From a virus (lineage: Duplodnaviria > Heunggongvirae > Uroviricota > Caudoviricetes): a DNA stretch of 64,000 nt. The notes under the pieces were generated by a model. The model had not been told where the DNA came from and did no database searches. It saw only the letters and a list, made by a program, of their open reading frames with translations. Position 1 is the first letter of the stretch. Each line of letters starts with the position of its first letter. Location of the stretch: positions 9,023-73,022 of the IMG/VR virus record IMGVR_UViG_3300032156_000002, one strand, 5' to 3'. Positions 1,870-50,766 of the stretch are shown piece by piece. A program made the translations under genes and the position numbers.

Positions 1870-2700
1870 TTATTGTACCACAGTCGGCATGCTTGGCTTG
1901 TCGGGCCAGCCCGCGAGCACCACTTGGACGCACAGGTTGTGGATGGCCTCGCGGTCGGGCTGGGCCGGGAGGGTTGACGCGAGGTAGGCATCCTCGGACC
2001 GCTTGAACAGGTCATCCGACAGCGCCTTGACCCGCTCAAGGCTCCACTCGCCCCGTTTGATTTCCAAGAGTTCGGTCGCGTCCTCGCGTTCAACGTACAA
2101 CTCGCCGTCCTTCAGGAACTCTATGCCCATGCGCAGGAGCCGGACGAGGTGCGCCGCGTTCTTGGTGTCGTAGCCGAACTTCTCCACGAGCGCCTTGCGC
2201 TTTGCGCCCATAAACCCCTCGAAGGCCCCGTGGGTCATGCGGTGAAGTTGGCCATAGGCATAACCTGTGAAGGAGCGGTAGACGTGGCGGCCGACGAACA
2301 GGCGGCGGCTGTCGAGAATCAACTGCCCAGCGGGTTCGACGCGCAGGTAGTATTTCTCGGGGAGCCACAGCATCATCAGGACATTCGGGTTGCCTTGGGC
2401 GAGCAGGCCGATGAACTTGCGGGCCTCATATACGACAATATCCCACTCGTCGTGTTTGATTTCGCGGGTCCCTCGGTGGGCGAACTCCAACAGGCCGACA
2501 TAGTATTCCATCGGCGGCACGCACACGAACATCACATCCTTGTCATCAATGCTCGTGGCATCGGAGTTTGGGCGGTAGGTCCCGTGGGCTATTGAGCCTC
2601 GGTAGCCCGCCAGAATGGCCCACTCACTCAGGAACGGCTTGCCGTCGGTAATCGAGCGCGGGATTGTCATTTTTGTGTCCTCTTCTTTGCCGCCCGCCAA
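1870..2700 (-). CDS. Nucleotidyltransferase-fold protein, Pol-beta-like NTase, possibly RlaP/DUF4037 family.
   Basis: GSIAHGTYRPNSDATSIDDKD matches the hG[GS]...[DE]x[DE] NTase active-site pattern. 276 aa. Confidence 0.5.
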   Translation of the reverse strand: MAGGKEEDTKMTIPRSITDGKPFLSEWAILAGYRGSIAHGTYRPNSDATSIDDKDVMFVCVPPMEYYVGLLEFAHRGTREIKHDEWDIVVYEARKFIGLLAQGNPNVLMMLWLPEKYYLRVEPAGQLILDSRRLFVGRHVYRSFTGYAYGQLHRMTHGAFEGFMGAKRKALVEKFGYDTKNAAHLVRLLRMGIEFLKDGELYVEREDATELLEIKRGEWSLERVKALSDDLFKRSEDAYLASTLPAQPDREAIHNLCVQVVLAGWPDKPSMPTVVQ

Positions 2701-3344
2701 GTCTTACAGGCGACGGACAGTTTTGCACGGGTTTCGGGGCCAAGTGTGCGACCGCGCATTGCGGAACTTATGCGCGCGCGAGTCTCGGCTGTGTGAGTAT
2801 GTCCGCGATGCGCGATACTCATGCGTGCGCGACTCTCGGCTGTAACCGTGTGCCCGCGCAACGCGACGCTAAGGCGCGTGCGCGTTTCGGGGCCGAAGAT
2901 ACGTCCGTGCCGTGTGTTACTCATCCAAGCGCGGGTCTCGGCTGTGTGAGTACGTCCGCGATGCGCGATACTCATGCGTGCGCGACTCTCGGCTGTAACC
3001 GTGTGCCCGTGCAACGCAATACTCATGCGTGCGCGCGTCTCGGCGGTGCGCGTGACGCCCAGCGAGGAGGTCACGCATTTCTTGCAGATGTTGTAGTGCC
3101 CTCGGACGTTTACCAATCCCTGTTCGTAACGTGTGAGTTCGAACGGTTCGCAGATGACGACAGTTCTGAACTCGAATGCGCCCTCACCGTACTTGCGAAA
3201 CGTGGCCTGCAAGTGCCGATTGATATGCGTTCCACGGCGCAGGGCGCGAAGATGACTGAGTAGCCGAGATTCGACGCGACAACTCTGCCCAACATATCCC
3301 CGCCCGTTACGCAGGTTTCGAATGGCATAAACGCCGGTGCTCAT
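2667..3344 (-). CDS. Free-standing GIY-YIG homing endonuclease with tandem NUMOD3 DNA-binding repeats.
   Basis: N-terminus GVYAIRNLRNGRGYVGQS...R...H...E matches the GIY-YIG core. The C-terminal half has at least 5 repeats of TAETRARMS-type NUMOD3 motifs. Confidence 0.8.
   Translation of the reverse strand: MSTGVYAIRNLRNGRGYVGQSCRVESRLLSHLRALRRGTHINRHLQATFRKYGEGAFEFRTVVICEPFELTRYEQGLVNVRGHYNICKKCVTSSLGVTRTAETRARMSIALHGHTVTAESRARMSIAHRGRTHTAETRAWMSNTRHGRIFGPETRTRLSVALRGHTVTAESRARMSIAHRGHTHTAETRARISSAMRGRTLGPETRAKLSVACKTWRAAKKRTQK
2760..3060. repeat. Tandem imperfect direct repeats of about 45-50 bp, coding for the NUMOD3 repeats of the homing endonuclease.
   Basis: gtgtgagtatgtccgcgatgcgcgatactcatgcgtgcgcgactctcggctgtaaccgtgtgcccg recurs with variants. 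Confidence 0.7.
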
Positions 3345-12232: not shown

Positions 12233-12264
12233 TAATATACCGCGTGCGGAACAGTTTGTCAAGC
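12233..12264 (-). promoter_or_regulatory. Conserved promoter, family copy 3, firing leftward.
   Basis: Reverse complement reads gcTTGACAaactgttccgcacgcGGTATATTag. Confidence 0.5.
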
Positions 12265-12398: not shown

Positions 12399-12428
12399 TA
12401 TTATACCACGTGCGGAACACTTGTCAAG
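12399..12428 (-). promoter_or_regulatory. Conserved promoter, family copy 4, firing leftward, in tandem with copy 3.
   Basis: Reverse complement reads cgcTTGACAagtgttccgcacgTGGTATAATaag. Confidence 0.5.
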
Positions 12429-12752: not shown

Positions 12753-15035
12753 ATGACCACTCTGCCCCTGCCACTGGACACGCCGGACCCGCGGCCCGAG
12801 CCGCCCGAGCAATGGAGTCAATCGTCGTGGGATGGCACGTTGCCAGACCGGCCAGCGCCCGCGCTGTCGCCCTACGGCGACTTGCCGAGCGACGGGGATA
12901 TTCAATCGGGCAAGGTGGTCCGCCGCGCGCTCATCACGGGCATTACTGGGCAGGACGGCTCGTATCTGGCGGAGCAACTCGTGGCTCGCGGCTACTTTGT
13001 GTACGGCCTCGTTCGCCGCACGTCACATCCCAACTACGAAAACCTGCGCGGCATTCTCACTAACCCCGACCCTTTCGTTCGCGGCCGCCTCACGCTCATT
13101 GCGGGTGATGTGACCGACCCGGCCAGCGTAAGCGGGGCGATGTGTGCCGTCCTTCCGCATGAGGTCTACAACCTTGCGGCCATGTCGTTCGTGGGCGCGT
13201 CGTGGGCGCAAGCCCGGCTCACGTTCGACGTGAACGCCATAGGCTTTCTCAATATCCTCGAGGCGGCCAAGGCGCAGATGGAGCGAGCGCGCAGGCAGGA
13301 CTATCTCAGCCTTACGGCTATCATTCCTGACCCGCGCGTGTATCAGGCCAGCACCTCCGAGATGTTCGGAAAGACAGCGCCGCCTCAGAACGAGGACAGT
13401 CGCCTCAGCCCGCGCAGTCCCTACGGCATCGCCAAACTCGCGGCGCACATGCTGGCGCGTGTCTACCGCGAGTCGTATGGGCTGTATGTCGCGAGTGGGA
13501 TACTTTTCAACCACGAATGTATCTCCGCCAAGACGCCTCTACTCATTCGCCAAGGGGGCACAATTCGGGCGGTCACGCCGTATGACCTTGTGCCCATCAA
13601 GGACAAGAGCAAGGGCAAAGCGAAACAGACATGGGCGTTGGCCGACACGCAAATTTGGGACGGCGACCAATGGGCCGACTTGCGGCACATCACCGCGACG
13701 GCATTGCGCACAGAGGACGCCAGCCACAGAATGCTTGAAGTGAATGCGCGTGGCGGAACAGTTGACGTGACGGCGAGTCATAACATGCTTGACGCCGAGG
13801 GCAATAAGATGCCCGCAGGGGCGATTCGGCACGGAACGCCTATGCCGCGCTTGCTACTTGCTACCCATTGGCCAACACCTTCGGGATGGGCGCGTGTCTC
13901 AGATGAACTAGCGGCATTCCTTGGGTACATGGTTGCCGATGGCTACATCGAGCGAGATGGCAACAAGATTCAGTATACGAAGAACGCCCGCTCTATGCGT
14001 GGGGAGGTGGCTGATTTATGGCATCGACTCTTCGGAGGGACATCGCGTGAGTGGGAGGGGAAATCCGGCTTCTCGACCGGCGGCCCGGTGACACAACTTG
14101 CTTTGACTGGCGTACCCGCCGTGGCCGCTTGGCTACGGGAAATGCTCTACTCTGGCGACCTCAAACAGGTGCCTCCGCTCATTCTGAATGCGACCGCAAG
14201 CGCACGACGTGCATTCCTTGACGCCTATTACGCAGGCGACGGCCTCAAGGCTGGCAACGGATTGTCATTCAAGACGAATAGCCCCGTACTTGCTCTTGGC
14301 CTTATCTACCTCTATGGACTTGAGGGCAATCGCGCATCGGTCTATGTCGAGCACCGCGAGGGCAAACGCTACTACGCCGTCAACCTCCGGTCCAACGACG
14401 CCATCGGCGAAAAAGGACAACATCTCGCGAAAGACCCGGCCGAGGTCATGTCTATCGGCGACGGCGAGCCGACGAACTGGGTATTTGACCTCGAGACATC
14501 CACGGGCAAGTTCATGGCGGGGGTGGGACGGATTGTTGTGGCAAACAGTCCTCGCCGCGGCCTTGAGTTCGTGACCCGCAAGATTGCGCGAGCGATTGCA
14601 CGAATCCAAGCGGGCCGCGAGCGCACCGTCGAACTGGGGGATACATCGGCCCAGCGCGACTGGGGATACGCGCCCGAATACACGGAGGCCATGCGGCTCA
14701 TTCTGCGCCACCGCCTGCCCGAAGATTTCGTCATCGGCACCGGCCAGACCCACAGCGTGCGCGAGTTCACCATCGCGGCTTTTTCCGAGGTGGGCTGTCG
14801 CGACCCGTGGCCCTACGTGATGACGCGCGGAACGCTTATGCGCCCCGCCGAGATTCCTGTGCTTCGTGCGGATTGTCAAAAGGCGAAGCGATTGCTTGGG
14901 TGGTCGCCGCACATCCTCATGCCAGACCTTGCGGCGCTCATGGTTCGCGCCGAGATGGACGCGCTCAATGCGCAACCGTTGGACCCGTTGCGTGTTGAAC
15001 TGACCGAATCAAAGAATCTCCCGCCCATTCAGTAG
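12753..15035 (+). CDS. gmd: GDP-mannose 4,6-dehydratase interrupted by an intein. There is a roughly 50 aa N-terminal extension; a GTG start nearer ITGITGQDG is also possible.
   Basis: ITGITGQDGSYLAEQL, GDVTD, YGIAKLAAH (the YxxxK SDR motif), LFNHE|C...VVAN|SPRRGLEFVTRKI and RDWGYAPEYTEAMRL are classic GMD blocks. Confidence 0.85.
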   Translation: MTTLPLPLDTPDPRPEPPEQWSQSSWDGTLPDRPAPALSPYGDLPSDGDIQSGKVVRRALITGITGQDGSYLAEQLVARGYFVYGLVRRTSHPNYENLRGILTNPDPFVRGRLTLIAGDVTDPASVSGAMCAVLPHEVYNLAAMSFVGASWAQARLTFDVNAIGFLNILEAAKAQMERARRQDYLSLTAIIPDPRVYQASTSEMFGKTAPPQNEDSRLSPRSPYGIAKLAAHMLARVYRESYGLYVASGILFNHECISAKTPLLIRQGGTIRAVTPYDLVPIKDKSKGKAKQTWALADTQIWDGDQWADLRHITATALRTEDASHRMLEVNARGGTVDVTASHNMLDAEGNKMPAGAIRHGTPMPRLLLATHWPTPSGWARVSDELAAFLGYMVADGYIERDGNKIQYTKNARSMRGEVADLWHRLFGGTSREWEGKSGFSTGGPVTQLALTGVPAVAAWLREMLYSGDLKQVPPLILNATASARRAFLDAYYAGDGLKAGNGLSFKTNSPVLALGLIYLYGLEGNRASVYVEHREGKRYYAVNLRSNDAIGEKGQHLAKDPAEVMSIGDGEPTNWVFDLETSTGKFMAGVGRIVVANSPRRGLEFVTRKIARAIARIQAGRERTVELGDTSAQRDWGYAPEYTEAMRLILRHRLPEDFVIGTGQTHSVREFTIAAFSEVGCRDPWPYVMTRGTLMRPAEIPVLRADCQKAKRLLGWSPHILMPDLAALMVRAEMDALNAQPLDPLRVELTESKNLPPIQ
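13518..14546 (+). mobile_element. Intein of 343 aa with a LAGLIDADG homing-endonuclease domain, inserted in the gmd NHE/SPRRG active-site region.
   Basis: Begins with Cys right after LFNHE and ends in ...VVAN followed by Ser+1. Two LAGLIDADG-like motifs, LAAFLGYMVADGYIERDG and FLDAYYAGDGLKAGNG. The extein junction reconstitutes the canonical NHESPRRGE. Confidence 0.8.
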
Positions 15036-15079: not shown

Positions 15080-15820
15080 ATGGACATTATCTTTCGCACT
15101 CTGCAAGGTGGCCGCCGCACCGCCGTGACGGTAGGCGGCATGCTCTGTGGCGTGGCCATACGCGGTCGGAAAGACTCGCCCAACCTGCTACTGGGCATAG
15201 CCGTTGCGATTTTCAAGGCGCGCCCCCACGGCTTTGATTCGTACACCAACCAACTCATTGATGACGAGCGCCCGCCCGTCCACCGGGCAACCCTGAGCGA
15301 GACGGGCATTGGATTCCTGATTCAACTCTGGCATCAATACCATATGGAGTTGATGGCGCAGAATCGCGCCGCGGACGAGGGCGTACACCGGCTCCTGACG
15401 GCCACCGCCCGCCTCGCGAAACTCAAGCAGAATGGGGACTGCGTTTGTGAGGCGTGTCTCGCGCAGGCTCGGGATGAAACCTCGGATGCTATGGAGATTC
15501 TCAATGCTCCTAAGCCCGGCATGACCCTGAGCGAAAAGTACGCGCGCCGCTGGTTGCGCATTACCCCTATCATCGCGTTGGACGGGCAGGCCGACGTATC
15601 CTTCTGGATGGACCGCATGGCTTTGATGCGTGGCGAACCGGACCCGGTGCATGGCGTGCGCGGCATTGCGATGGCGGCGACGAAGGCCCCCGGCATGCTG
15701 ATTTTGGATGACCCGCTCACGGCTACCGGTATTGCGGAAGGGAAGCAACCGGACACACCGCTCACGGTCGCAGAGGTAAGCGGCTACGAAGGAATAATCA
15801 ATCTCGCGGCTGAAGCATAG
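15080..15820 (+). CDS. Hypothetical protein, 246 aa.
   Basis: ORF track. Confidence 0.5.
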   Translation: MDIIFRTLQGGRRTAVTVGGMLCGVAIRGRKDSPNLLLGIAVAIFKARPHGFDSYTNQLIDDERPPVHRATLSETGIGFLIQLWHQYHMELMAQNRAADEGVHRLLTATARLAKLKQNGDCVCEACLAQARDETSDAMEILNAPKPGMTLSEKYARRWLRITPIIALDGQADVSFWMDRMALMRGEPDPVHGVRGIAMAATKAPGMLILDDPLTATGIAEGKQPDTPLTVAEVSGYEGIINLAAEA

Positions 15821-15828
15821 GAGCGCCC

Positions 15829-16584
15829 TTGAAAGTCTCCGTCATACTCACGCTGTACGGGCGCGAGGTTGCCAGCCGCCGGGCGCTCGCGTGCCTGTTG
15901 CGCCAGACGCACCCGCCCGAGCAGATTGTCATTGTGGATGACGAGAATGGGGGTTGGGCTGAGGCCGAGGTCGCCAAGGACCCGCGCCTGCTCTACTTCC
16001 CGTTCAGGCCAAGGGGCGGAGCGTGGCGCGCGTGCAACCTCGCGGTCAATGCCGCATGGCCCAGTGTCACGGGCGATTACATCATTCTCACTTGTGGCGA
16101 TATGCTTGTGCCGACGTTCGCCGTCGAGCGCCATCTTGCCGCGCAGGTGGGCGACTTGCGCACGACGCCCACCGTCTACGGACTGGACGAAAACACAACG
16201 ATGCGGCTGGGCGTGCCCGCGGAGGACGAGCAGGGGCACTGGGCCTTGCCGGATTATCAAGACTGGGTAGACCACGAAAAGTTCAACAACCTGCCGGGCT
16301 TCTGGCAGTGGCCGAGCATATCAACCGCGCCGAACGAGGGTGTACTCAAGGCGGACGGGATTTGGTATGCGTCGGCAAAGGCGTGGCGGCATCACGTGTG
16401 GTTCAGCGGCAACACGCGCGCCGGGTGGGAGTTCTTTGGCCCGCCCCTGATTCCAAGCGACGACCTCGGCGCAGACGAACTGGGCATGCACAAGAACGAA
16501 TGTGGCTATCCCGGCGGACGCCGCCCGCTCACCGACTGCGGGTACGCCATCTATCACCAGTTCCACATACCGGGTGGCCGATGA
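15829..16584 (+). CDS. GT-A fold (GT2-like) glycosyltransferase, paralog 1 of 4, with a TTG start.
   Basis: KVSVILTLYGRE...LLRQTHPPEQIVIVDDENGG resembles the GT2 N-terminal signature. Shares WxGNTREGWE and YHQWH motifs with paralogs 2-4. Confidence 0.55.
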   Translation: MKVSVILTLYGREVASRRALACLLRQTHPPEQIVIVDDENGGWAEAEVAKDPRLLYFPFRPRGGAWRACNLAVNAAWPSVTGDYIILTCGDMLVPTFAVERHLAAQVGDLRTTPTVYGLDENTTMRLGVPAEDEQGHWALPDYQDWVDHEKFNNLPGFWQWPSISTAPNEGVLKADGIWYASAKAWRHHVWFSGNTRAGWEFFGPPLIPSDDLGADELGMHKNECGYPGGRRPLTDCGYAIYHQFHIPGGR

Positions 16585-17366
16585 AAGTCAGCGTCGTCAT
16601 GGCCGCGCGCTACCGTGCGTCCTCGGGGCCGCGTTGCCTCAAAGCCGTGCTTACCCAGTCGCGTCCGCCAGACGAGATTATCATGGTCAACTGCGGCGAG
16701 AACGAATGGGCCGCCCACATCAACAGCCCGCTTGTCGCCGCGGGTGGCCACAAAGTCGCGTTCAAGTACGTGCGCTACCATCCCGCCTCGCCCACGGAAT
16801 ACGCATACACGCGCGGGGTCAACAAGGCGTGGAATCGATGCACTGGCGACTACGTGTTTATCACTCCAACCGATGCACTGGCTCCCTTTCACTGTATCGA
16901 GGCGTCGCTCGCGGTCCAGACAGGCATGCACCGCGTGTGCCATCTCGTGTATGGGCTGGATGAAGGGACCACAAGGCGTCTGGATGACCCGCTATTCCGG
17001 TGGCTGGGTACAGACTTCGAGATTTTCCATACCCTGTCCGGCTTCAGCACGTGGTGGAGGCGCGGCTGGCCGCCGCCCAACAACAGCCCCTTGCAATTGC
17101 AGTGGTGGGGCAACACAGTGTTCAGTTCTAACACGCGCGAGGGTTGGGAGCAATACTGGCCGGGGCAACCCTTCAGCGATGACACGGTTACGGGCAACGA
17201 CGAGATATGCCTGAATATGATGGAGCACGGGGTGGACGTGCCGGACCGTCCTATCAGCGCACCCACGTGGCGCGAGATTACCAAATGTCCAGTTCCGGTC
17301 TATCATCAATGGCACTTGACCCAAGCCGAGGAAGATGCGGCCCACGCTCGCAAGAGGAAAGCCTGA
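16581..17366 (+). CDS. GT-A fold glycosyltransferase, paralog 2.
   Basis: Real gene is in a different frame from the artefactual 447 aa ORF 16023..17366. MKVSVVMAARYRASSGPRCLKAVLTQSRPPDEIIMVNCGENEW. Confidence 0.6.
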   Translation: MKVSVVMAARYRASSGPRCLKAVLTQSRPPDEIIMVNCGENEWAAHINSPLVAAGGHKVAFKYVRYHPASPTEYAYTRGVNKAWNRCTGDYVFITPTDALAPFHCIEASLAVQTGMHRVCHLVYGLDEGTTRRLDDPLFRWLGTDFEIFHTLSGFSTWWRRGWPPPNNSPLQLQWWGNTVFSSNTREGWEQYWPGQPFSDDTVTGNDEICLNMMEHGVDVPDRPISAPTWREITKCPVPVYHQWHLTQAEEDAAHARKRKA

Positions 17367-17369
17367 CCC

Positions 17370-18188
17370 GTGAAGATTAGCGTTGTCATGGCCGCGCGCT
17401 ATCGCTCCGACCATGGCCCGCGCTGTCTCAAGAGCGTGCTGTGGCAGACGCGCCCGCCCCACGAGATTATCATGGTTGACTGCGGCGAGAACGAGTGGGC
17501 GGCGGATATTGGGCCGACAGTGCGAGCCTTGAACGGGTCCGAGGTTGAATTCAAGCGCCATCGTTATGCACCGGCAAGCGTATATGAGTACGCTTACACG
17601 CACGGGGTGAATGCGGCATGGCCGAGGTGCACAGGCGACTACATTTTCATCACGACAACCGACGCGCTCGCGCCTGTGCGTTGTATCGAGGCGTCAATCG
17701 CCATGCAGGTCGGCACGTCGCGCGTGTGTCATCTATGCTATGGGCTAAACCGCGCGACAACAAACCGGCTCGATGACCCCGCCTTCCGCTGGGCAGGAAC
17801 CGACATGCGCCTTTTTCATTCCCTGCCGGGATTCGAGGACTGGTGGAAAGAGGGGCCACGCTGGCCTCATCCGAACAACAGCGTAATCCAACAGGCGTAC
17901 TGGAACCACACCCTGTTCACGAGCAACACGCGCGAGGGCTGGCTCGATTCGCCAGAGTGGCCGGACCTGCCATTCCCTACCCCCGAGTTCATAGCCCGTG
18001 ATACATGGTTTCTGGCCGCCACGGACGAGCGGAGCATGGCCTACCTCGAGGAGAGCGACTCGCTAATCAGGAAGTCCGGCGTTGGGAAGCGTCCGGTCAC
18101 GAAGTGCCCCATTCCGGTCTATCATCAGTGGCATCTTGAGGTCAAAGACGAGAATCGTTTGCACGGCTGGGTCGGCCGGGAGACTTGA
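17370..18188 (+). CDS. GT-A fold glycosyltransferase, paralog 3, with a GTG start.
   Basis: MKISVVMAARYRSDHGPRCLKSVLWQTRPPHEIIMVDCGENEW, about 60% identical to paralog 2. Confidence 0.6.
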   Translation: MKISVVMAARYRSDHGPRCLKSVLWQTRPPHEIIMVDCGENEWAADIGPTVRALNGSEVEFKRHRYAPASVYEYAYTHGVNAAWPRCTGDYIFITTTDALAPVRCIEASIAMQVGTSRVCHLCYGLNRATTNRLDDPAFRWAGTDMRLFHSLPGFEDWWKEGPRWPHPNNSVIQQAYWNHTLFTSNTREGWLDSPEWPDLPFPTPEFIARDTWFLAATDERSMAYLEESDSLIRKSGVGKRPVTKCPIPVYHQWHLEVKDENRLHGWVGRET

Positions 18189-18191
18189 GAC

Positions 18192-19007
18192 ATGGATGAC
18201 ATACGCAAAATGAAAGTGTCCGTCGTAATGGTCGGGCGCTACCGCGCAGAGAATGCGCGCCGCTGTCTGGCCGCGCTCCTCTGCCAGTCGGTCGTACCCG
18301 ACGAGATTGTCATGGCCGATGACGGCGGGAACGCATGGGCGCAGGCCATGCAAAGCCCACTGCCCGGCACGGAGATTGAGTTCAAGTACCACGGGTATCG
18401 CCCGCAGGGCGGCCCAGTGCACGCCTACACGCTCGCGGTCAATGCGGCGTGGCCCAAGGTGACGGGCGACTATGTTTTCATGTGCCCGACCGACATCATC
18501 GCGCCCTATCACGGGATAGAGGCATCGCTCGCTGTACAAGAGGGAACGCACCGAGTCTGCCACATTGTCTACGGCCTGAACGAGGCGATGACCGGGATGC
18601 TGGATGACCCGGCCTTCAAGTGGCTTGGCACGGACTTCGAGATTTTCAAAACCCTCCCCGGCTGGGGCGATGTGATTGGCGCGTCCCCGTTCAACAACGC
18701 GCGCGCCCATGGCTGGTGGCATCACACAATGTTCACGTCCAACACGCGCGAGGGCTGGGAGGAGTTCTGGCCGGGCAAGCCGTTCAGCGACAGCGACCAG
18801 TACGGCAATGACGAACTCTGCCTGTTCGAGATGGAACAGGCCGTCGGGGCGGCATTCAAGGCAGAGGGCGCGACCACGCCTCGCCGTCATCTGACGAAGT
18901 GCGACCTTCCGGTTTATCACCAGTGGCACTACAAGGCGGGCGTCGAGGAGAAGATGTACCGCGGCGAGATGAGTGAGCGAGCGATGCGTGCGTTGGGAGC
19001 ATCCTAG
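18192..19007 (+). CDS. GT-A fold glycosyltransferase, paralog 4.
   Basis: MKVSVVMVGRYRAENARRCLAALLCQSVVPDEIVMADDGGNAW. Same conserved C-terminal motifs. Confidence 0.6.
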   Translation: MDDIRKMKVSVVMVGRYRAENARRCLAALLCQSVVPDEIVMADDGGNAWAQAMQSPLPGTEIEFKYHGYRPQGGPVHAYTLAVNAAWPKVTGDYVFMCPTDIIAPYHGIEASLAVQEGTHRVCHIVYGLNEAMTGMLDDPAFKWLGTDFEIFKTLPGWGDVIGASPFNNARAHGWWHHTMFTSNTREGWEEFWPGKPFSDSDQYGNDELCLFEMEQAVGAAFKAEGATTPRRHLTKCDLPVYHQWHYKAGVEEKMYRGEMSERAMRALGAS

Positions 19008-20561: not shown

Positions 20562-21956
20562 GTGACATGGGAGATAGTTGTCTCTGACGTGGTGAAGTGG
20601 GCCGCCGAGTACGATGGCCCGCTCTTCCACGCGCTTCTGTGCGACCCGCCCTATCACCTCACCTCGATTGTCAAACGGTTCGGCTCGCCCGACGCGGCTC
20701 CTGCCCAACTAGGGAGCGATGGCCGATTCTCGCGGCTGTCGCGCGGCTTCATGGGCCAGACATGGGACGGCGGCGACGTAGCCTTCCGCCCTGAGACGTG
20801 GGAGGCGCTCGCGCGCGTGTGCACCCCCGGCGCGTACCTGCTCGCGTTCGGCGGCACGCGGACCTTCCACCGGCTCGCCTGTGCCATTGAGGATGCGGGC
20901 TGGGAGATACGGGACACTCTCATGTGGGTGTACGGGAGCGGATTTCCAAAGTCGCACGATGTGAGCAAGGGCATAGACCGCGCCGCGGGCGCGAAGCGCG
21001 AGGTGGTGGGGCGCTCTCCATACTCGTCTCGCAGGCCCAAACCAATCCGCGGCAACGGGGAAATCATAGGCGTCGAAGGGGGCGATAGACATCCGGGCGG
21101 CGCGGTTAGTGTCACCGCCCCCGCCACCGCCCCCGCCAAGCAATGGGATGGCTGGGGCACGGCGCTCAAGCCAGCATGGGAACCCATAATCGTCGCGCGC
21201 AAGCCGCTCGAAGGGACAGTCGCGGCCAACGTCCAGAAGTGGGGCGCGGGCGCGCTGAACATTGACGGATGCAGGGTGGGGACTGAAGCGCATACCTATC
21301 GGGCACGGGGGACGAAAAACCTCGTAGACCAACACGCTTCGAGCGACCGCCCATATATTGCTGGACTTCCGAATCGTGATGAGCCGGAGGTGTCTGTGTC
21401 TGGCCGCTGGCCCGCGAACCTGATACACGACGGGAGCGAGGAGGTCGTGGAGAGGTTCCCGCAAACGACAACGGGAAGCGGACACGTTAGACATGCTGGC
21501 CATGTTAGCAATGGCGGGAGCGGTTACAAGAGCAAGGCGGGCACCGATGCCTATTGGCAAGGCGACTCCGGCTCCGCCGCCCGGTTTTTTTACGAGGCCA
21601 AGGCGAGCGCCGACGAACGCGAACAGAATCTACTTGGGAGCATTCCGTGCGTCCATTGCGGAGGACTTGACACAGTGACGCACAAGGATGACGAGGGACG
21701 GAATGTGCCGTGTCGGCGCAACGTCCATCCCACGGTCAAACCGATTGCGCTCGCGCAGTACCTCGCTCGACTCATCCTGCCCGCGCCGGTGGCCGCGCCG
21801 CGCCGCATCCTTGTGCCGTTCAGCGGGTCTGGCAGTGAGATGCTGGGCGCGTTGTACGCGGGGTGGGAGATGGTCCTTGGCATAGAAATCTCGCCCGAGT
21901 ACGCGGACATCGCGCGCGCCCGGCTTGCGCGGGATATTCAAGCACCACTATTGTAG
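20562..21956 (+). CDS. DNA methyltransferase, beta-class N6A/N4C (DPPY then FxGxG), probably an orphan. GTG start.
   Basis: LLCDPPYHL near the N-terminus and VPFSGSGSEMLGA near the C-terminus. 464 aa with a large insertion. Confidence 0.8.
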   Translation: MTWEIVVSDVVKWAAEYDGPLFHALLCDPPYHLTSIVKRFGSPDAAPAQLGSDGRFSRLSRGFMGQTWDGGDVAFRPETWEALARVCTPGAYLLAFGGTRTFHRLACAIEDAGWEIRDTLMWVYGSGFPKSHDVSKGIDRAAGAKREVVGRSPYSSRRPKPIRGNGEIIGVEGGDRHPGGAVSVTAPATAPAKQWDGWGTALKPAWEPIIVARKPLEGTVAANVQKWGAGALNIDGCRVGTEAHTYRARGTKNLVDQHASSDRPYIAGLPNRDEPEVSVSGRWPANLIHDGSEEVVERFPQTTTGSGHVRHAGHVSNGGSGYKSKAGTDAYWQGDSGSAARFFYEAKASADEREQNLLGSIPCVHCGGLDTVTHKDDEGRNVPCRRNVHPTVKPIALAQYLARLILPAPVAAPRRILVPFSGSGSEMLGALYAGWEMVLGIEISPEYADIARARLARDIQAPLL

Positions 21957-23281: not shown

Positions 23282-23854
23282 ATGCAAACACTGTGCGTTG
23301 ACATTGACGGCCCGCTCGCCAATTTTGAACAGGCGGCCACCGACCGATTCGGAATCGGGCGTGGCCGCGAATCGTATTCGCTCGAAGCGCGCTTCCCCGA
23401 CCGGACCGCCGCTGTTCGCAAGTGGGCAGACAACCCCGACACGTACCGCGACCTATCCGTTGTTGATGGTGCGCGCGATGGCCTCGCCGCGATTGTCAAA
23501 CTCTGCCCTTGCCTCGAAATCCTCGCCGTGAGCGCACGGCCCCACGAGTCCTACGACATCACCTACGCATGGCTCAATCGCCATCACCTGCTTGCCCTCC
23601 TGAGCGGCTTGACGATTGTCAACTTTCAAGTGAAGCCCGAGGTCATCTGCTCGCTGGACCCCGTGGCCGCCATCGAGGATAGCCCGGCTCAGGCGCAGGC
23701 ACTCGCGGTCAAGGGCGTGCCAGTTATCCTATTCGACGCGCTCTACAACCAAGAACTCTGGACCGACATGCCGCCGGGTCACGCGCGTGCACGCGGCTGG
23801 CTTGAGGTCGCATCCATTGTGCCTGTGTGGGTCAGGGAGCGGGAGGCCCCTTGA
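23282..23854 (+). CDS. HAD-superfamily 5'(3')-deoxyribonucleotidase-like protein.
   Basis: VDIDGPLANFE is the DxDG HAD motif I in the NT5C arrangement. 190 aa. Confidence 0.55.
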   Translation: MQTLCVDIDGPLANFEQAATDRFGIGRGRESYSLEARFPDRTAAVRKWADNPDTYRDLSVVDGARDGLAAIVKLCPCLEILAVSARPHESYDITYAWLNRHHLLALLSGLTIVNFQVKPEVICSLDPVAAIEDSPAQAQALAVKGVPVILFDALYNQELWTDMPPGHARARGWLEVASIVPVWVREREAP

Positions 23855-26064: not shown

Positions 26065-26383
26065 AGGCCAAATCCGCCTCGGCTCCGACGCCGCGAATGC
26101 CTTGGGCTTTACCAAGGACAAGTTCACCGGCTACCTGTGGCACGACGGCAACGCCATTTACATATCGCTCATCGAGTCGCTGGACCAAGGCAAGGGGCAT
26201 CTCAAGGCGCTGTTCGACCGCATCTTCGAACTGGGCTACGCCGTGAAAGTGCCGACGCCCTTGCCGCTCATGGAGGCGATTCTCAAGCACGAGGGATTTG
26301 TCCACACGATGGAGTTTGACCCGCTCGTTGGCGACAACTGCGACGTGTGGTGCAAGGCGAGCGAAGCCGCGGTGCCGATATGA
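26036..26383 (+). CDS. Possible minimal GNAT-like acetyltransferase.
   Basis: IESLDQGKGHLKALFDRIFELGYAVKV resembles GNAT motif A, Q/RxxGxG/A. Weak. Confidence 0.3.
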   Translation: MRMPNSTLPEGQIRLGSDAANALGFTKDKFTGYLWHDGNAIYISLIESLDQGKGHLKALFDRIFELGYAVKVPTPLPLMEAILKHEGFVHTMEFDPLVGDNCDVWCKASEAAVPI

Positions 26384-27018
26384 CCATCGAGTTGCATCAC
26401 GGCGAATTCCAGACCGCGGACATTCAGCCCGAGTCGGTGGATGTCATCGCCACCGACCCGCCCTACCCGAAACCCTACCGGGGCCTGTGGCCGGACCTCG
26501 CCGTGTTCGCACAGCGCGTGCTCAAGCCCGGCGGGAGCCTGCTTGCTATCACCCCGCACTACCTGTTGCCTTGGGTCATCCAACAGTGGGGCGAGGCCGG
26601 GCTGAAGTACCGCTGGATTCTCAAGATGGACCAAGAGGCCGGACCGCACCCGCGCATGGCCATGGGAGTCGAGGTCACGTGGAAGCCGATTCTCTGGTAC
26701 GTCAAGGGAAACTTCCCGCGTGGGCGCGGCTTTGTGAAAGACGGATTTGAGTCTGTGACGAAGGGCGAACTCCTCGCCGTGCGCGGCCAGCCCTTCGAGT
26801 GGATGCAATCGCTGAACTGGGCCGAACACATGATGAGGTTTGTCAAGCCCGGCGAGTTGGTCGTGGACCCCATGATGGGCGTCGGCACCCTGCCCCTCGT
26901 AGCAGGCCAGCACGGAGTTGATGTCATCGGAGTCGAGAAGGACGAGGACGTTTATCAATTCGCCGTGGACCGGCTCCTCAAGGCAAACCTGTTCGTAACA
27001 GAAAAGAGGCTGACATGA
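26380..27018 (+). CDS. DNA methyltransferase, beta-class DPPY, probably a second orphan MTase.
   Basis: VIATDPPYPKP and VVDPMMGVGTLPLVA. Start at the internal MTIELHHG of ORF 26347..27018. Confidence 0.7.
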   Translation: MTIELHHGEFQTADIQPESVDVIATDPPYPKPYRGLWPDLAVFAQRVLKPGGSLLAITPHYLLPWVIQQWGEAGLKYRWILKMDQEAGPHPRMAMGVEVTWKPILWYVKGNFPRGRGFVKDGFESVTKGELLAVRGQPFEWMQSLNWAEHMMRFVKPGELVVDPMMGVGTLPLVAGQHGVDVIGVEKDEDVYQFAVDRLLKANLFVTEKRLT

Positions 27019-33041: not shown

Positions 33042-33269
33042 ATGCCCGACAGTCTGACACAGCGGCTCGTTCGGCTCTCCGGCGTCTACCAGAAGATGGC
33101 AGTGCAGACATTTCCAAAAGGCGGCGTTGTCGTCTGTGAGTTGTGCGGAGACGAAAAGGCGTTCACGGTCGAGCAGGCCGCCCACTACCTCAAGTCGGGC
33201 TGGCCGACGTGCACATGCTGTAACCGCGAGATGCGCGCCATGGCCTGCCCGCGCGAGATGACGAAGTGA
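33042..33269 (+). CDS. Hypothetical Zn-finger 75 aa protein.
   Basis: CELCGDE...CTCCNREMRAMACP. Confidence 0.45.
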   Translation: MPDSLTQRLVRLSGVYQKMAVQTFPKGGVVVCELCGDEKAFTVEQAAHYLKSGWPTCTCCNREMRAMACPREMTK

Positions 33270-33985
33270 GCCGCATCATTGCACTGGCCAACGCGCGCAA
33301 TGAAGCGCGGAACATAGACCGCTTCTGCCGGTCCTACCAGTGGGCGGACCGGATTATCATTGCCGACTGCGGGTGCGAGGATGACACTGTACAGCGCGCC
33401 ATGTGCTACGAGAACGTAGAGGTGCGCCCGTTCCAAGTGCGTGTTCACCTGCCCGGCGCGACCGGCTGGCGCACGCCGCAGGGCAAGTGCCTTGAGACCC
33501 TCATTGGCTGGGCCAGCGATTATCAACCCGACTTCCTCGTCTACGAGGACGTGGACTGCGTGCCCAACGGGCTGTTGCGGAACGAAGCGCGCCAGCGTAT
33601 CGAGGCCGCGACCCGACCTGTCATGCTGGCGCAACGCATCTACCTGTGGGGCGAGGACCAATGGTTCCCGAATCTCTCCACCCCGTGGGACCATGCGCAA
33701 CACACGCACTGGTTCCCGACGTTGTGGGCATGGCGCGCCGACTGGGACCTTGGCCCCTTTGACTTTATAGAGCGCGAGATTCATTACCGCAACTTGCCCG
33801 AGCCTGAGCAATGCGAACGCTTTACGCCGCCACTGTGCACGCTCCACTACACGTGGCCGGACATAGCCGAGGTTCAGCGCAAACTTGACTTCCTGCGCCA
33901 CGTGAGCGGCGAGCAACCGAACGCGATGCACCCGCTCAAGTTCGGCGGCCCGCTCGCGCCCTTGCCGGACTGGGCGCACATTTAG
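33266..33985 (+). CDS. GT2-family glycosyltransferase-like protein with a GTG start.
   Basis: IIALANARNEARNIDRFCRSYQWADRIIIADCGCEDDT matches the GT2 N-terminal beta-alpha-beta plus DxD-region signature. Confidence 0.5.
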   Translation: MSRIIALANARNEARNIDRFCRSYQWADRIIIADCGCEDDTVQRAMCYENVEVRPFQVRVHLPGATGWRTPQGKCLETLIGWASDYQPDFLVYEDVDCVPNGLLRNEARQRIEAATRPVMLAQRIYLWGEDQWFPNLSTPWDHAQHTHWFPTLWAWRADWDLGPFDFIEREIHYRNLPEPEQCERFTPPLCTLHYTWPDIAEVQRKLDFLRHVSGEQPNAMHPLKFGGPLAPLPDWAHI

Positions 33986-46582: not shown

Positions 46583-48172
46583 GTGGTTGTCCGCGACACG
46601 CAGTACAAATTCCGCATCCCGCCCGAGGACTGGATAAGCGACAGGGCGGTTGGAATCGCGCAAGCCGCCGACCCGCCGGAACCGAACGACCCGGCAGTGG
46701 CGGCCAAGATGCGTGCCGCCCGCACGTCGCTCATTGATTTCACCGAGCATACCTACCCGACCTACAAGACCGAGGAGTTTCATCGGCACCTTGCCGGGGC
46801 GTTGCAGAAGGTCGTCATCCCGCGCGCGGACGGCACGCGCGAGATTCCCAAACTGATGATTTTCGCGCCGCCCCAGCACGGCAAGTCGGAACTGGTGAGC
46901 ATCCGCACGCCGCCCTTCTGGCTGGCGCACAACCCGGACTTGCCCGTTGCGCTCATTTCCTACGCGGCGGCCAAAGCCTACGACAACAGCCGACGCGCGC
47001 GCAGTGTCCTTGAGTCCGACGCCTACCGCGACATCTTCCCGTACATCAACGGGGACCCGAACAACCGGCGCGTCACAGATTGGCACATCCTCGGGCGCAA
47101 GGGCTATGCGCTGGCCGCGGGCCTCGGCGGCCCTATCACCGGCCACGGGTTCGGCCTTGGCATCATTGATGACCCGTTCGAAAGTTGGGCGGACGCGCAA
47201 TCGGAGACCATGCGCGAGGGGGCGTGGAGTTGGTACGACGGCACGTTCCGCACCCGCATGTGGGAGAACAGCGCGGTCATCTTTATGATGACGCGCTGGC
47301 ATCTCGACGACCTCGCGGGCCGCCTGCTCGAATCCGAGGGCGAGGTAACAGAGGGCGGGGAGTGGACTGTCCTGCGCTATCCGGCGCTCGCAGAGGAAGG
47401 CGACATTCTCGGGCGCGAGATTGAAGCGCCTTTGGCCCCCAAGCGATTTTCAAAGACGTTCTTGCTCGACCTCAAAGAGAAGGCCAGCCCGTTCGTCTGG
47501 AATGCTGAATACCAACAGCACCCGATTGCCAGCACCGGCGACGTTTTCAATATCGCCCGGCTTCAGATTGTGGACGCACTGCCTGCGGAGGTCGCCGAAG
47601 TTGATGCCCCTGACGAGCCGGGCAAACCTCCGCGCATAGTCGAAGTCCACAAGGGCACACGCTACTGGGACCTCGCGGGTACAGAGGCCAAGACATCCAA
47701 GAGCGACCCGGACTGGACCGTAGGTACAGGTCTGACAACGTTCGAGGCCAAGTCGTTCATTTGGGATGTGGTGCGCATGCGCGCGTCACCCGAGGGCGTG
47801 CGCGCGACCATCGGGTTGACGGCGCAGACGGATGGACGCAGGGTGCGGGTCCGCATCGAGCAAGAAGGTGGGCAGGCGGGCAAGGCGCAGGTGCAGGACT
47901 ACATTGGCTTCCTCCAAGGATTCGACGTTGACGGCGACCTGCCAAGCGGCGACAAGCGGGTACGCGCCATGCCGCTCGCCGCTCAGGTGAACGCTGGCAA
48001 CGTGTTCCTGCTCCGCGGACCATGGAACAAGCAGTTCATGGCCGAACTTGCCGAGTTTGACCACGGCAAGCACGATGACCAAGTGGACAGTGCCGACGGA
48101 GCGTTCAACATCGAGACCGGCCAGCCGAAGTGGCGCAAGATTGGATTCAAGGCAATTTCGGGGCCAAGATAG
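46583..48172 (+). CDS. terL: Terminase large subunit with a GTG start.
   Basis: Walker A in IFAPPQHGKSEL. DDPFE and MMTRWHLDDL ATPase and nuclease-type motifs. 529 aa. Confidence 0.85.
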   Translation: MVVRDTQYKFRIPPEDWISDRAVGIAQAADPPEPNDPAVAAKMRAARTSLIDFTEHTYPTYKTEEFHRHLAGALQKVVIPRADGTREIPKLMIFAPPQHGKSELVSIRTPPFWLAHNPDLPVALISYAAAKAYDNSRRARSVLESDAYRDIFPYINGDPNNRRVTDWHILGRKGYALAAGLGGPITGHGFGLGIIDDPFESWADAQSETMREGAWSWYDGTFRTRMWENSAVIFMMTRWHLDDLAGRLLESEGEVTEGGEWTVLRYPALAEEGDILGREIEAPLAPKRFSKTFLLDLKEKASPFVWNAEYQQHPIASTGDVFNIARLQIVDALPAEVAEVDAPDEPGKPPRIVEVHKGTRYWDLAGTEAKTSKSDPDWTVGTGLTTFEAKSFIWDVVRMRASPEGVRATIGLTAQTDGRRVRVRIEQEGGQAGKAQVQDYIGFLQGFDVDGDLPSGDKRVRAMPLAAQVNAGNVFLLRGPWNKQFMAELAEFDHGKHDDQVDSADGAFNIETGQPKWRKIGFKAISGPR

Positions 48173-48339: not shown

Positions 48340-50766
48340 ATGGCAAAGCCTACTGACCCAACCGATAACGCGCGCGCCCTGCATCTGCCCGCGTACCTCA
48401 ACCGCGTGGTCCCCTACTGGGGGCATCCGGGCTGGCTCATGGCCGAGCGGTGGCGCTCGTTCGTGCGCAATCAGGCGCTCTGCCTCGTCTGTCGCGACAC
48501 ACTCATTCAGAACGTATTATCAACCCCGTGGGATGTCGTGGCGAAGGACCCCGGCGACAAGCAAAGCCCCAGCCTCAAGAAGTCCATTGACCGAATCAAG
48601 AAAGTCCTCGAGGACGCCGAGGGCGACTTCGACACATTCTGCGAACTCGTATTGCAGGACATGCTCGACATTCCGTTCGGCGGCGCGTTCGAGGTGGGCC
48701 GCGAGGACGACTCGCCCGACGGCGATGTGCTGTGGATAGAACACATTGACGGTGCGACACTTCTGCCCACTGGCGACCCGGATGACCCGGTTGAACAACG
48801 GGTCAAGCAGATGCCCACGCGCACCGTCAGATTTCCAAAGTATGCCATCGAGCGGTTGTACGTGACGCCGCGCCCGGAGATTGACCGCAAGGGATGGGGC
48901 ATGGCCCCGCCTGAGAAGGCGTACCTCGCCATTGAGATGCTGTTCCGCGGCGACCGCTATTACGCGAATCTCTTGCTCGACACGCCCGAGGCGGGCATCC
49001 TCGACCTGATTGACATGGAGGAACAGGATGCCGAGGATTGGATTGCCAATGCCAAGGCTCTGTTCACTGGAATCGACGGATTCAAGGTGCCCGTTCTCTA
49101 TCAGCACACAAAACCCGCCGTGTGGATTCCTTTCAACCGCCCTCCCACCGACCTGCTATACGACAAGACAACCATCAAGTACGCGCAAATCCTTGCCGCG
49201 GCTTACGGGATGCGACTCTCTGACATCGGCATGGAGGACATGGGCGGCGAGAAAACTCTTGCGGGCGTTATCCGGGGAGAGCGGCAATCGAGGCGCAGTG
49301 GACAGGCACTTGTCCGAACCAAACTTGAGAACGCCATGGACCGCGTTGTTGGAGACAAACTCAAATTCATCTGGAAGATAGACGATGACGAAGTGACGCT
49401 CGGCAAGGGCCGCGCCGTGATGACATACGTGCAAGGGCTGACGGCCGCCAAGGAAGCGGGTTTCATTGACGCGGCGGAAGGGCGGCGCGAATTGGTCGCG
49501 ACCGGCGTGCTCAAGGTCGAGATTGACCCCGAGGCTTTGCCTCCGCCTCCGGCGATGCCCGGCGCTATTGACCCGGCGACCGGCCTTCCCATCATGCCGC
49601 CGAATCCTCTTGAGGCGGCGGCCAGCGGCACGTCATCCGCGGAGTTGGGCGGGGTCCCCGTGAGTCAGGGCGGGCGAGGCGATAGTGGACTGCTGACACA
49701 GCGCGGTATTGCCGGAACGCGAACCACAGAGCAACTGCAAGCCGAGATGGCGCGGATTATCAAACCGGCGCTCACCCTCGTGGTCGAGCGCGCCGAGGAA
49801 CCGCGATTGCGCAGGCTTGTGCGCGCGGTAACAACGGCCATGGTCCCCAAGGTGGAGCGAACTTTCCTCGACCTCACCGATGAACAAATCGAGGAAACGT
49901 GGCTCCCCGAGATGCTGGCCTTCGACTTCGACGAGCCGAACGAGGTCGAGAACGCCGTGTTGCGAAGTGAGGCCGACGAACTGCGGGTCGAGGTCGAAAA
50001 GCATCTGGCCGATGACCCGTGGTGGAGAACAGCCACCGACGCCCGCAAGGACGAAATCATGGTCGTGATGCGCGCGGCGGCGGAGGCCGGGGCGGTGAAC
50101 GCGGGCTATGCCATCGTGCACGCGCTGTACGAGGCGGGCCAGCGGCGTGACTACGCCATGACGGGATATTCATTCAACCTCAGGAACAGGGCGACCATCG
50201 CCTTGCTTGAGGAGCGCGCGGCTAATCTCGTGCGCTGGGTGGACGAAGCGACCAAGACCTTCATCCGGCGTGTCGTGGTAGCCGGTGTGCGGCAGGGTTT
50301 GAGTTCGCCGGAGATTGCGCAGGCCATTCGTGACGGCGCGACCGCCGAACACATCCTGCAAGTAGATGGCTTCATCGGCGATGTCACGAAACTCATCCGC
50401 GAGGGACTCGTGGAGATGAGCGAGGCGCGGAGCAACTCGATTGTCAATACCGAAATCGCGCACGCCGAAACGACCGGGCGACTCGTGCAGTTCAAGATGT
50501 CCGGCCTGACCACGAAGGCGTGGGTCCACCGCGGCAAACGCGGCGTAACAGCCAAGGGCAACGTGCACCCATGTCCCCTGTGCGCGGGCAACGAGGCCAT
50601 GGGTTTTGTGCCGATTGACTTTGCGTACCCGACCGTGTTCCGCAATGAACCGTCGCCCGTGCCGCCCGCGCATCCGAGCGTGTGCCACTGCGACATCATG
50701 TTCAACGAGGCCGAACTTCTGGCCAAGGTGGGGACGAACGAATACCGTCCGTGGAACGGGCGGTAG
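48340..50766 (+). CDS. Portal protein fused to a C-terminal phage Mu F-like head-morphogenesis domain.
   Basis: Lies after terL. The C-terminal roughly 150 aa, with IVNTEIAHAETTGR...CPLCAGNEAMGFVPIDFAYPT, matches the Mu F/SPP1 gp7 family. The N-terminal roughly 500 aa has portal-like size and position. Confidence 0.7.
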   Translation: MAKPTDPTDNARALHLPAYLNRVVPYWGHPGWLMAERWRSFVRNQALCLVCRDTLIQNVLSTPWDVVAKDPGDKQSPSLKKSIDRIKKVLEDAEGDFDTFCELVLQDMLDIPFGGAFEVGREDDSPDGDVLWIEHIDGATLLPTGDPDDPVEQRVKQMPTRTVRFPKYAIERLYVTPRPEIDRKGWGMAPPEKAYLAIEMLFRGDRYYANLLLDTPEAGILDLIDMEEQDAEDWIANAKALFTGIDGFKVPVLYQHTKPAVWIPFNRPPTDLLYDKTTIKYAQILAAAYGMRLSDIGMEDMGGEKTLAGVIRGERQSRRSGQALVRTKLENAMDRVVGDKLKFIWKIDDDEVTLGKGRAVMTYVQGLTAAKEAGFIDAAEGRRELVATGVLKVEIDPEALPPPPAMPGAIDPATGLPIMPPNPLEAAASGTSSAELGGVPVSQGGRGDSGLLTQRGIAGTRTTEQLQAEMARIIKPALTLVVERAEEPRLRRLVRAVTTAMVPKVERTFLDLTDEQIEETWLPEMLAFDFDEPNEVENAVLRSEADELRVEVEKHLADDPWWRTATDARKDEIMVVMRAAAEAGAVNAGYAIVHALYEAGQRRDYAMTGYSFNLRNRATIALLEERAANLVRWVDEATKTFIRRVVVAGVRQGLSSPEIAQAIRDGATAEHILQVDGFIGDVTKLIREGLVEMSEARSNSIVNTEIAHAETTGRLVQFKMSGLTTKAWVHRGKRGVTAKGNVHPCPLCAGNEAMGFVPIDFAYPTVFRNEPSPVPPAHPSVCHCDIMFNEAELLAKVGTNEYRPWNGR

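Follow-up and report, generated by a model that had tools for sequence, protein, structure and literature searches.

To our knowledge, a few mycobacteriophages are the only tailed phages in which virion glycosylation has been demonstrated to date; there, it shields the particles from antibodies. Che8-type glycosyltransferases (GTs) are reported to glycosylate capsid and tail-tube proteins, while the giant virus PBCV-1 encodes a GDP-mannose 4,6-dehydratase (GMD, A118R), a GMER (A295L) and the GT-A enzymes A064R and A111/114R, which are cytosolic and act on its capsid protein. Among bacterial enzymes, WrtF of Rhizobium tropici is a GT-A enzyme that moves L-fucose from GDP-fucose; it is metal-independent and has GAD in place of DxD, and the absent first Asp gives space for the C6 methyl group of fucose. 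Here we describe a cassette in an uncultured tailed phage with a whole genome of ~96 kb, of which we analyzed a stretch of 64,000 nt (the window; from IMG/VR record IMGVR_UViG_3300032156_000002). The genes gmd, X, G1, G2, G3 and G4 follow one another in this order, all on the + strand, and encode a GMD, an orphan protein and four intact, tightly packed GT-A paralogs. We put the probability that this cassette makes a 6-deoxyhexose glycan on the phage's own virion proteins, taken as one whole statement, at roughly 40%.

The four GT genes occupy positions 15829-19007 without interruption and encode proteins of 251-272 aa: G1 (15829..16584, 251 aa, TTG start), G2 (16581..17366, 261 aa, ATG), G3 (17370..18188, 272 aa, GTG) and G4 (18192..19007, 271 aa, ATG). 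Their coordinates and paralogy, proposed in an earlier analysis that used the DNA letters without database searches (the sequence-only reading), were confirmed. The proteins share 38-58% identity, with G1 at 38-43% to the others and G2-G4 at 45-58% to one another, and a search of 5.8 billion sequences with G2 as the query retrieved G3 at E = 5e-90 and G4 at 5e-81. A four-way alignment has 60 invariant columns, including NTRxGW and YHQ.H, which bears out the conserved C-terminal blocks described earlier. The GT2-like N-terminus proposed at the same time stands in part: the Pfam GT2 domain (PF00535) covers the N-terminal ~100 residues of all four proteins (profile positions 1 to ~100 of 168), but only G1, at 27.9 bits, passes the gathering score of 23.3, with G2, G3 and G4 at 21.9, 19.4 and 14.8 bits.

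From a 21-sequence family alignment, AlphaFold2 gave a model of G2 with a mean predicted local distance difference test (pLDDT) score of 84.4 and a predicted template-modeling score of 0.88. The protein is predicted to form one Rossmann-like alpha/beta/alpha domain, which can be superposed on GT-A enzymes of known structure, in agreement with the fold proposed for these genes, and no non-GT fold was obtained. The family profile matches GT2 structures in the PDB at 1e-20 to 1e-8, with K4CP best at 1.9e-20, and the best structural matches include many polysaccharide and O-antigen enzymes (K4CP, WrtF, the prophage-encoded TarP and RmlT). Against BFVD, the G2 model found generic GT-A matches only, and the giant-virus GTs among them reached template-modeling (TM) scores of <= 0.63.

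A search for the DxD site in these proteins gave a different answer from the one expected. The position aligned to the DSD of K4CP reads CGD, PTD, TTD and PTD in G1-G4 and x-x-D/E across the family; judged from this alignment, the canonical DxD is absent and only its last acidic residue remains. In the nucleotide-binding DDG motif, whose first Asp is conserved in at least 90% of the 21-sequence alignment, DD is kept in G1 (VDDENG) and G4 (ADDGGN), with DC in G3 (VDCGEN) and NC in G2 (VNCGEN). The family-invariant residues, namely an Arg, two Trp, an Asn and a C-terminal H-Q-x-H, are present in all four copies, and a nearly invariant D/E-E pair is a candidate catalytic base. G3 contains a lineage-specific insertion in its C-terminal half, while G4 keeps the family's C-terminal S.R..R tail, which aligns with distant members. 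The Trp content of the four proteins is 3.4-4.8%. Because they have an isoelectric point of 5.6-6.8 and, like X, no hydrophobic segment (maximum 19-residue Kyte-Doolittle mean <= 1.3), G1-G4 look like soluble cytoplasmic enzymes. Together, the alignments and the model make it almost certain that G1-G4 are four active-looking GT-A glycosyltransferase paralogs.

In order to place the cassette among related loci, we compared it with a sister phage (L001/L002) and two distant relatives (L006 and L007), and the protein scan covered the ~65 open reading frames (ORFs) of the window plus ~11 kb of flanking sequence (~5.8 kb on the left, L009; ~5.6 kb on the right, L010). A word-indexed search of 5.8 billion proteins returned only the window's own copies and those of the sister phage. 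An exhaustive profile search recovered 59 proteins at E <= 1e-10, with generic GT2 domains beyond that threshold. About half of the 59 are full-length proteins of ~230-300 aa, all with the pattern NTRxGW...DE...YHQWH, and the rest are long multidomain proteins that match solely in their GT2 N-terminal modules. All profile-search matches are metagenomic, the sole name given to any of them being the generic 'glycosyltransferase involved in cell wall biosynthesis', and the full-length family was found on phage-like metagenomic contigs only. No useful match came from the 50,697 GenBank phage records, which were searched at the DNA and protein levels with the region, G1 and G4; scans of IMG/VR with a DNA pattern from the window end and two GT-family alignments found no relatives; and PHROGs held no match for G1-G4 or X. 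Across 185,579 representative bacterial and archaeal genomes, only generic matches to the GT2 N-terminal half were recovered, and the C-terminal halves matched nothing better than E = 0.3. On this evidence, the G1-G4 family is probably restricted to phages.

Upstream of G1 lie the intein-containing gmd and the single hypothetical gene that the sequence-only reading had placed there. The gmd ORF (12753..15035, + strand) encodes 760 aa including the intein and 417 aa once spliced, and matches Pfam GDP_Man_Dehyd at 1.3e-97, split over two stretches. The intein (13518..14546, + strand; 343 aa, residues 256-598 of the ORF) carries a LAGLIDADG homing-endonuclease domain (Pfam LAGLIDADG_3, 8.5e-9) and interrupts the conserved GMD motif LFNHE|SPRRG in the active-site region. 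Its edges, NHE|CISAKT...VVAN|SPRRG, were set by alignment to the intein-less ortholog of the sister phage. Splicing in silico restores NHE|SPRRG and yields a GMD that is collinear with the L002 ortholog at 80% identity, with catalytic regions intact by sequence comparison. By these alignments, the gmd product would need intein splicing for activity. The penultimate intein residue is Ala instead of the usual His (VVAN|S). A Pro-rich N-terminal extension of ~55 aa (MTTLPLPLDTPDPRPEPPEQWSQSSW...; window 12753-12920) precedes the Rossmann fold and is conserved in the sister GMD.

Gene X (15080..15820, + strand), between gmd and G1, encodes a 246-aa orphan. Its sole homolog is encoded at the corresponding place in the sister phage and is 317 aa long; the two proteins are 60% identical, and their ratio of nonsynonymous to synonymous divergence (dN/dS) is 0.27. 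No match to X was found in Pfam, PHROG or the PDB, and a single-sequence AlphaFold2 model had a pLDDT of 38, too low to be of use.

G1 and G2 overlap by ATGA, the gaps between G2 and G3 and between G3 and G4 are 3 nt each, and the G4 stop codon shares 1 nt with the start of the gene that follows. Ribosome-binding sites are recognizable before G1 (AGGAG, ahead of the TTG), G3 and G4 (GGGAG, ahead of the ATG at 18192). These sites and the 1-4-nt overlaps indicate one operon, whose GC content at third codon positions matches the rest of the genome and which starts just right of a divergent promoter region. Two near-perfect sigma-70-type promoters lie on the - strand in the ~500-bp gap before gmd (12400-12427 and 12234-12262); these leftward promoters score 12/12 (with an extended -10 TG) and 11/12. 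For the cassette, no comparable + strand promoter was found.

The functional coupling of the GTs to gmd, put forward on the basis of their adjacency, is reinforced by the related phages. The order gmd-X-GT is conserved in the sister phage. In L007, a family GT and a GMD are adjacent, directly upstream of the large terminase (TerL) and portal genes and within the head/packaging module, and a second short-chain dehydrogenase/reductase (SDR) is encoded three genes after a putative capsid gene. In L006, the family GT is located two genes after a 398-aa putative major head protein (phrog_212, 3e-5), and the 3 kb 3′ of it contain an RmlD-type 4-ketoreductase (6e-38), a classical GT2 and a rhamnosyl-O-methyltransferase-like gene. 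L006 and L007 are mutually related, with capsid candidates 73% identical. The L007 portal is 37.6% identical to that of the window, and a 310-aa ChaB-domain protein just past the right end of the window (in L010) is 42% identical to the C-terminal half of a 533-aa L006 protein. Co-inheritance across the four phages is the strongest argument that the sugar of this family is a 6-deoxyhexose from a nucleotide-activated precursor, which by this genomic comparison is well supported. That the cassette assembles a glycan and is fed by a GDP-6-deoxyhexose is, in our judgment, probable.

A conserved protein of 193-202 aa always directly precedes the family GT in the distant relatives (L006 9420-10001; duplicated in L007, at 749-1357 and 1366-1959). 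These proteins have no match in Pfam, PHROG or the PDB and are unrelated to gene X. They are candidates for a partner or an acceptor of the GT, possibly a head decoration protein.

No 4-reductase or epimerase had been noticed beside the GTs, and this holds for the sequence scanned: neither Pfam nor tblastn with the RmlD-like enzyme of L006 revealed a second SDR (4-reductase or 3,5-epimerase-4-reductase) in the window or the flanks of the ~96-kb genome. Host Rmd or GMER enzymes are common. In PBCV-1, the GMD itself reduces the 4-keto intermediate to GDP-D-rhamnose. The missing reductase does not force a 4-keto donor, because GMD itself, host enzymes or the remaining phage genome could provide the reduction. 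With regard to the donor site, the xxD of G1-G4 would be the same kind of change as the GAD of WrtF, which is an analogy and not proof.

The sister phage encodes an intein-less gmd, X, a small lipoprotein-like ORF, G1, G3 and G4, but no G2. Identity to the L002 orthologs is 82% for G1 (dN/dS 0.14), 68% for G3 (P0002; dN/dS 0.16) and 79% for G4 (dN/dS 0.14), and these low ratios show purifying selection, as estimated from the two sequences, on G1, G3, G4 and X (0.14-0.27). The closest copy to G2 is G3 (58%). Synonymous divergence (dS) between the paralogs is saturated (1.3-1.8, vs. 0.9-1.4 between orthologs of the window and sister phages), which places the G2/G3 duplication before these phages diverged. 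Tandem quadruplication as a simple recent event, the picture suggested by the array itself, was rejected, as paralog dS equals or exceeds ortholog dS and only three GTs are present in the sister phage; the array consists of old, diverged copies. Nor do we claim that G2 is a chimera of G3 and G4, since its sliding-window pattern is explained more simply by divergence of the G3 lineage plus an insertion in one loop. Among G2-G4, identity is 52-69% in the N-terminal (donor) half and 41-48% in the C-terminal half, where indels are concentrated. G1 is equally distant from the other copies in both halves. It is also the copy closest to the single-copy enzymes of the distant relatives, and no other window protein matches the L006 GT as well (E = 1.9e-17 over the full length).

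The lipoprotein-like ORF of the sister phage (L002 8968-9276) is located between X and G1 and has no counterpart in the window. It encodes 102 aa with a signal peptide and a lipobox-like sequence, LLAAC, and may be a superinfection-exclusion lipoprotein.

In the mechanism that we propose, GMD would convert host GDP-mannose to GDP-4-keto-6-deoxymannose, and the 4-keto intermediate would be reduced to a GDP-6-deoxyhexose of the rhamnose, fucose or 6-deoxytalose type by GMD itself, a host enzyme or a further phage gene. At least some of G1-G4 would use this GDP-6-deoxyhexose as the donor. Because conservation among G2-G4 is higher in the donor-side N-terminal half than in the C-terminal half with its many indels, the copies would most likely recognize different acceptors, either adding sugars sequentially to give a short oligosaccharide or initiating on different acceptor proteins. 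The likeliest acceptors would be the phage's own capsid and/or tail proteins, to which the sugars would be added in the cytoplasm, either ahead of virion assembly or in its course. Four considerations favor this target: the enzymes are soluble and have no membrane or export partner; the family has no bacterial counterpart, which argues against a recently captured host O-antigen gene; in L006 and L007, the corresponding genes are part of the head module; and precedents exist in Che8 and PBCV-1. Our preference for virion proteins over a host surface glycan is nonetheless a tentative one.

Several observations weigh against glycosylation of the virion by a GDP-6-deoxyhexose pathway. No acceptor was identified, and the major capsid gene is not within the sequence covered by the window and flanks. 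The operon opened by the cassette continues into genes for a PD-(D/E)XK protein, DNA methylases and a 5'-deoxynucleotidase, and structural genes are not adjacent. The head-protein call in L006 is weak (E = 3e-5, without Pfam or PDB support), and the similarity to Che8 is at the level of the GT-A superfamily only. A 4-reductase is missing from the window and its ~11 kb of flanks. G2 lacks both Asp of the DD motif and G3 lacks one, and therefore the copies need not all share one donor or be active. Finally, structural similarity is higher to K4CP, which uses UDP-sugars, than to WrtF, and donor specificity is therefore not readable from the fold.

The same enzymes could instead remodel the host envelope, acting at the inner membrane face on undecaprenyl-linked O-antigen, capsule or exopolysaccharide intermediates. 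We regard this, the main rival reading, as rather unlikely, though less so than the other alternatives considered below, and attach the same doubt to its proposed benefit, in which added 6-deoxyhexoses would change the surface of the infected or lysogenic cell and block superinfection or the trapping of progeny on debris. Many of the top structural matches are polysaccharide or O-antigen enzymes (K4CP, WrtF, TarP and RmlT), yet the full-length family has no homolog in the bacterial genomes searched (one genome per species), although one would be expected for a captured O-antigen gene. The basic S.R..R tail of many members, including G4, could form a membrane-surface helix, but the GTs are acidic and have no hydrophobic segment. 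The likely hosts are alphaproteobacteria, the group infected by phages with related TerL proteins, and fucose and other 6-deoxy sugars abound in alphaproteobacterial O-antigens. In viromes, GMD genes of phages have been listed among surface or virulence genes, and the cassette of the sister phage includes the lipoprotein-like ORF. Against this, no flippase, polymerase, initiating phosphoglycosyl transferase, GtrA/GtrB or membrane protein was found in or near the cassette, and the Pfam families of a gtrABC-type seroconversion cassette (GtrA, GtrB and GtrC) are absent from the window. No integrase was seen, and in the relatives the genes lie in the head module.

For glycosylation of virion proteins, the question is also how the four copies would share the work, and comparison of their sequences does not discriminate sequential from parallel action. 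It is improbable, in our view, that each paralog initiates on a different acceptor, such as the capsid, tail tube, a decoration protein or the packaged giant proteins, and we hold equally doubtful the variant in which some copies, G2 especially, are non-catalytic specificity subunits and the array widens the range of targets instead of the length of the glycan. Three copies suffice in the sister phage, and the distant relatives have one family member each, accompanied in L006 by an unrelated GT2; in Che8, by contrast, three tandem GTs form a single virion-glycosylation system. Loop insertions in the C-terminal half distinguish the copies from one another, and NC replaces the DD nucleotide-binding motif in G2, but G2 keeps all family-invariant residues and an intact frame even though its duplication predates the split of the phages.

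It is very unlikely that the GTs glycosylate a hydroxylated DNA base to protect the phage genome from restriction, in the way described for the T4 glucosyltransferases, the phage TET-associated GT-A enzymes and RB69 arabinosylation. In favor of this reading, G4 is translationally coupled to a basic PD-(D/E)XK 'DNA repair' protein and is followed by two N6/N4 methylases and a 5'-deoxynucleotidase. Against it, the ~65 scanned ORFs include no thymidylate-synthase homolog, no TET/JBP dioxygenase and no C5-cytosine methylase; G1-G4 are acidic and lack the R...DDD...EDY/F motifs typical of DNA GT-A enzymes; and reported phage DNA GTs point mostly to UDP-sugars as donors, whereas the family here co-occurs with GDP/6-deoxyhexose enzymes and head genes. 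A GDP-derived 6-deoxyhexose on phage DNA, a chemistry without a UDP-sugar or a known hydroxylated-base pathway, would be just as improbable.

The sequence-only reading also listed a further GT2-like gene at 33266..33985 (+ strand), which encodes 239 aa. It matches PHROG 13126 (beta-1,4-glycosyltransferase) at 5.1e-6, over residues 5-49 only, and contains an EDVD motif, but the support is weak: its hhalign probability against the family is 56%, and no Pfam match at E <= 0.5, PDB match or GenBank phage match was found. The gene lies outside the G1-G4 family and is a weak candidate for a GT-A-like enzyme.

The window has a GC content of 62% and no nucleotide similarity to any of the 50,697 GenBank phage records. 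It includes the genes for TerL (46583-48172) and the portal (48340-50766), and the closest terminases, at ~36-38% identity, belong to Acetobacter and Bradyrhizobium phages. The rightward block 3′ of the cassette encodes two N6/N4-type DNA methylases (20562-21956, with a large insertion, and 26347-27018) and a 5'-deoxynucleotidase (NT5C; 23282-23854). Genes for Myb, Rad52, SSB and regulators occupy the left flank (~5.8 kb), and genes for giant proteins and ChaB the right flank (~5.6 kb). A GIY-YIG/NUMOD homing endonuclease gene (window 2667-3344, - strand) adjoins an RlaP-family nucleotidyltransferase gene (1870-2700); with the gmd intein, the phage therefore has at least two mobile endonuclease elements.

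A motif of 17-21 aa, RGGPGSGHFGHEGRPGEVGGS, occurs in at least eight copies in the giant post-portal proteins of the window (52534-52584, 53521-53571, 54382-54432, 55246-55296, 57810-57860, 58617-58667, 62622-62672 and 63357-63407). Its carriers are a 1939-aa LigT-like ORF, a 638-aa zeta-toxin ORF and a 1663-aa ORF that extends past the window end. A variant is present in ORF 59618-61363, and the motif is also found in L010 and, at 1611-2261 of L006, in a 1028-aa protein of that relative. It resembles a signal for domain boundaries or for protease processing in packaged 'polyvalent' proteins.

The biological significance of the cassette hinges on the target of glycosylation. It points to a wider and older practice, in an uncultured, probably proteobacterial lineage with its own 6-deoxy-sugar supply and a private GT-A family, of which one branch has three or four copies through expansion. 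If the virion is the target, phage protein glycosylation would extend beyond actinobacteriophages, and the family would offer compact soluble enzymes of ~250 aa for deoxy-sugar glycans. We advance with due reserve, as somewhat short of an even chance, the proposal that this is the first virion-glycosylation system of a non-actinobacterial tailed phage, one that makes its own GDP-6-deoxyhexose and relies on GT-A enzymes of a phage-only family without DxD. If the host surface is the target, the cassette would represent an unusual form of phage O-antigen rewriting by enzymes without a bacterial counterpart. With either target, the family joins WrtF as a testable case of GT-A enzymes that lack DxD.

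Among the described systems, the GTs of Che8 (gp108-110; also in Corndog and Myrna) are, like G1-G4, small soluble phage enzymes encoded in tandem, and their array likewise lies in a non-structural part of the genome beside nuclease and homing-endonuclease genes. Che8 gp109 shares the GT-A N-terminal half with the family, including a (T)ESDLIVP segment, and hhalign against the family profile gives it a probability of 92% over 85 N-terminal columns, compared with 5% for gp108 and 0.7% for gp110. The latter two are unrelated to the family, and only the array described here consists of true paralogs. The host clade of Che8 is also a different one, and no nucleotide-sugar enzyme is annotated beside its GTs in the stretch read. 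PBCV-1 resembles the present phage in combining a viral GMD with cytoplasmic GT-A enzymes, and its GT-A modules act in series on a virion protein; unlike the phage, it is a eukaryotic giant virus, has its GT modules fused into multidomain proteins and encodes a GMER. WrtF, a GDP-L-fucose:O-antigen fucosyltransferase (PDB 9omh), is 15% identical to the family, with sequence similarity confined to the first ~85 residues, and has its own C-terminal helical bundle where the phage family has the NTRxGW...DE...YHQWH C-terminal half. Enzymes of the PF00535/CAZy GT2 type (K4CP, SpsA, TarP and ppGalNAc-T-like) share the fold, the acidic residue that ends beta4 and, with G1 and G4, the intact DDG motif of the N-terminal beta1-alpha-beta2 unit, but only ~100 of ~260 residues match, the family is without DxD, and its C-terminal half has no match in bacterial genomes. 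The cassette is of a known kind, a virus-encoded nucleotide-sugar enzyme together with GT-A transferases, and what sets it apart is a phage-only, DxD-less GT-A family that is present as four old paralogs and is recurrently linked to 6-deoxyhexose enzymes.

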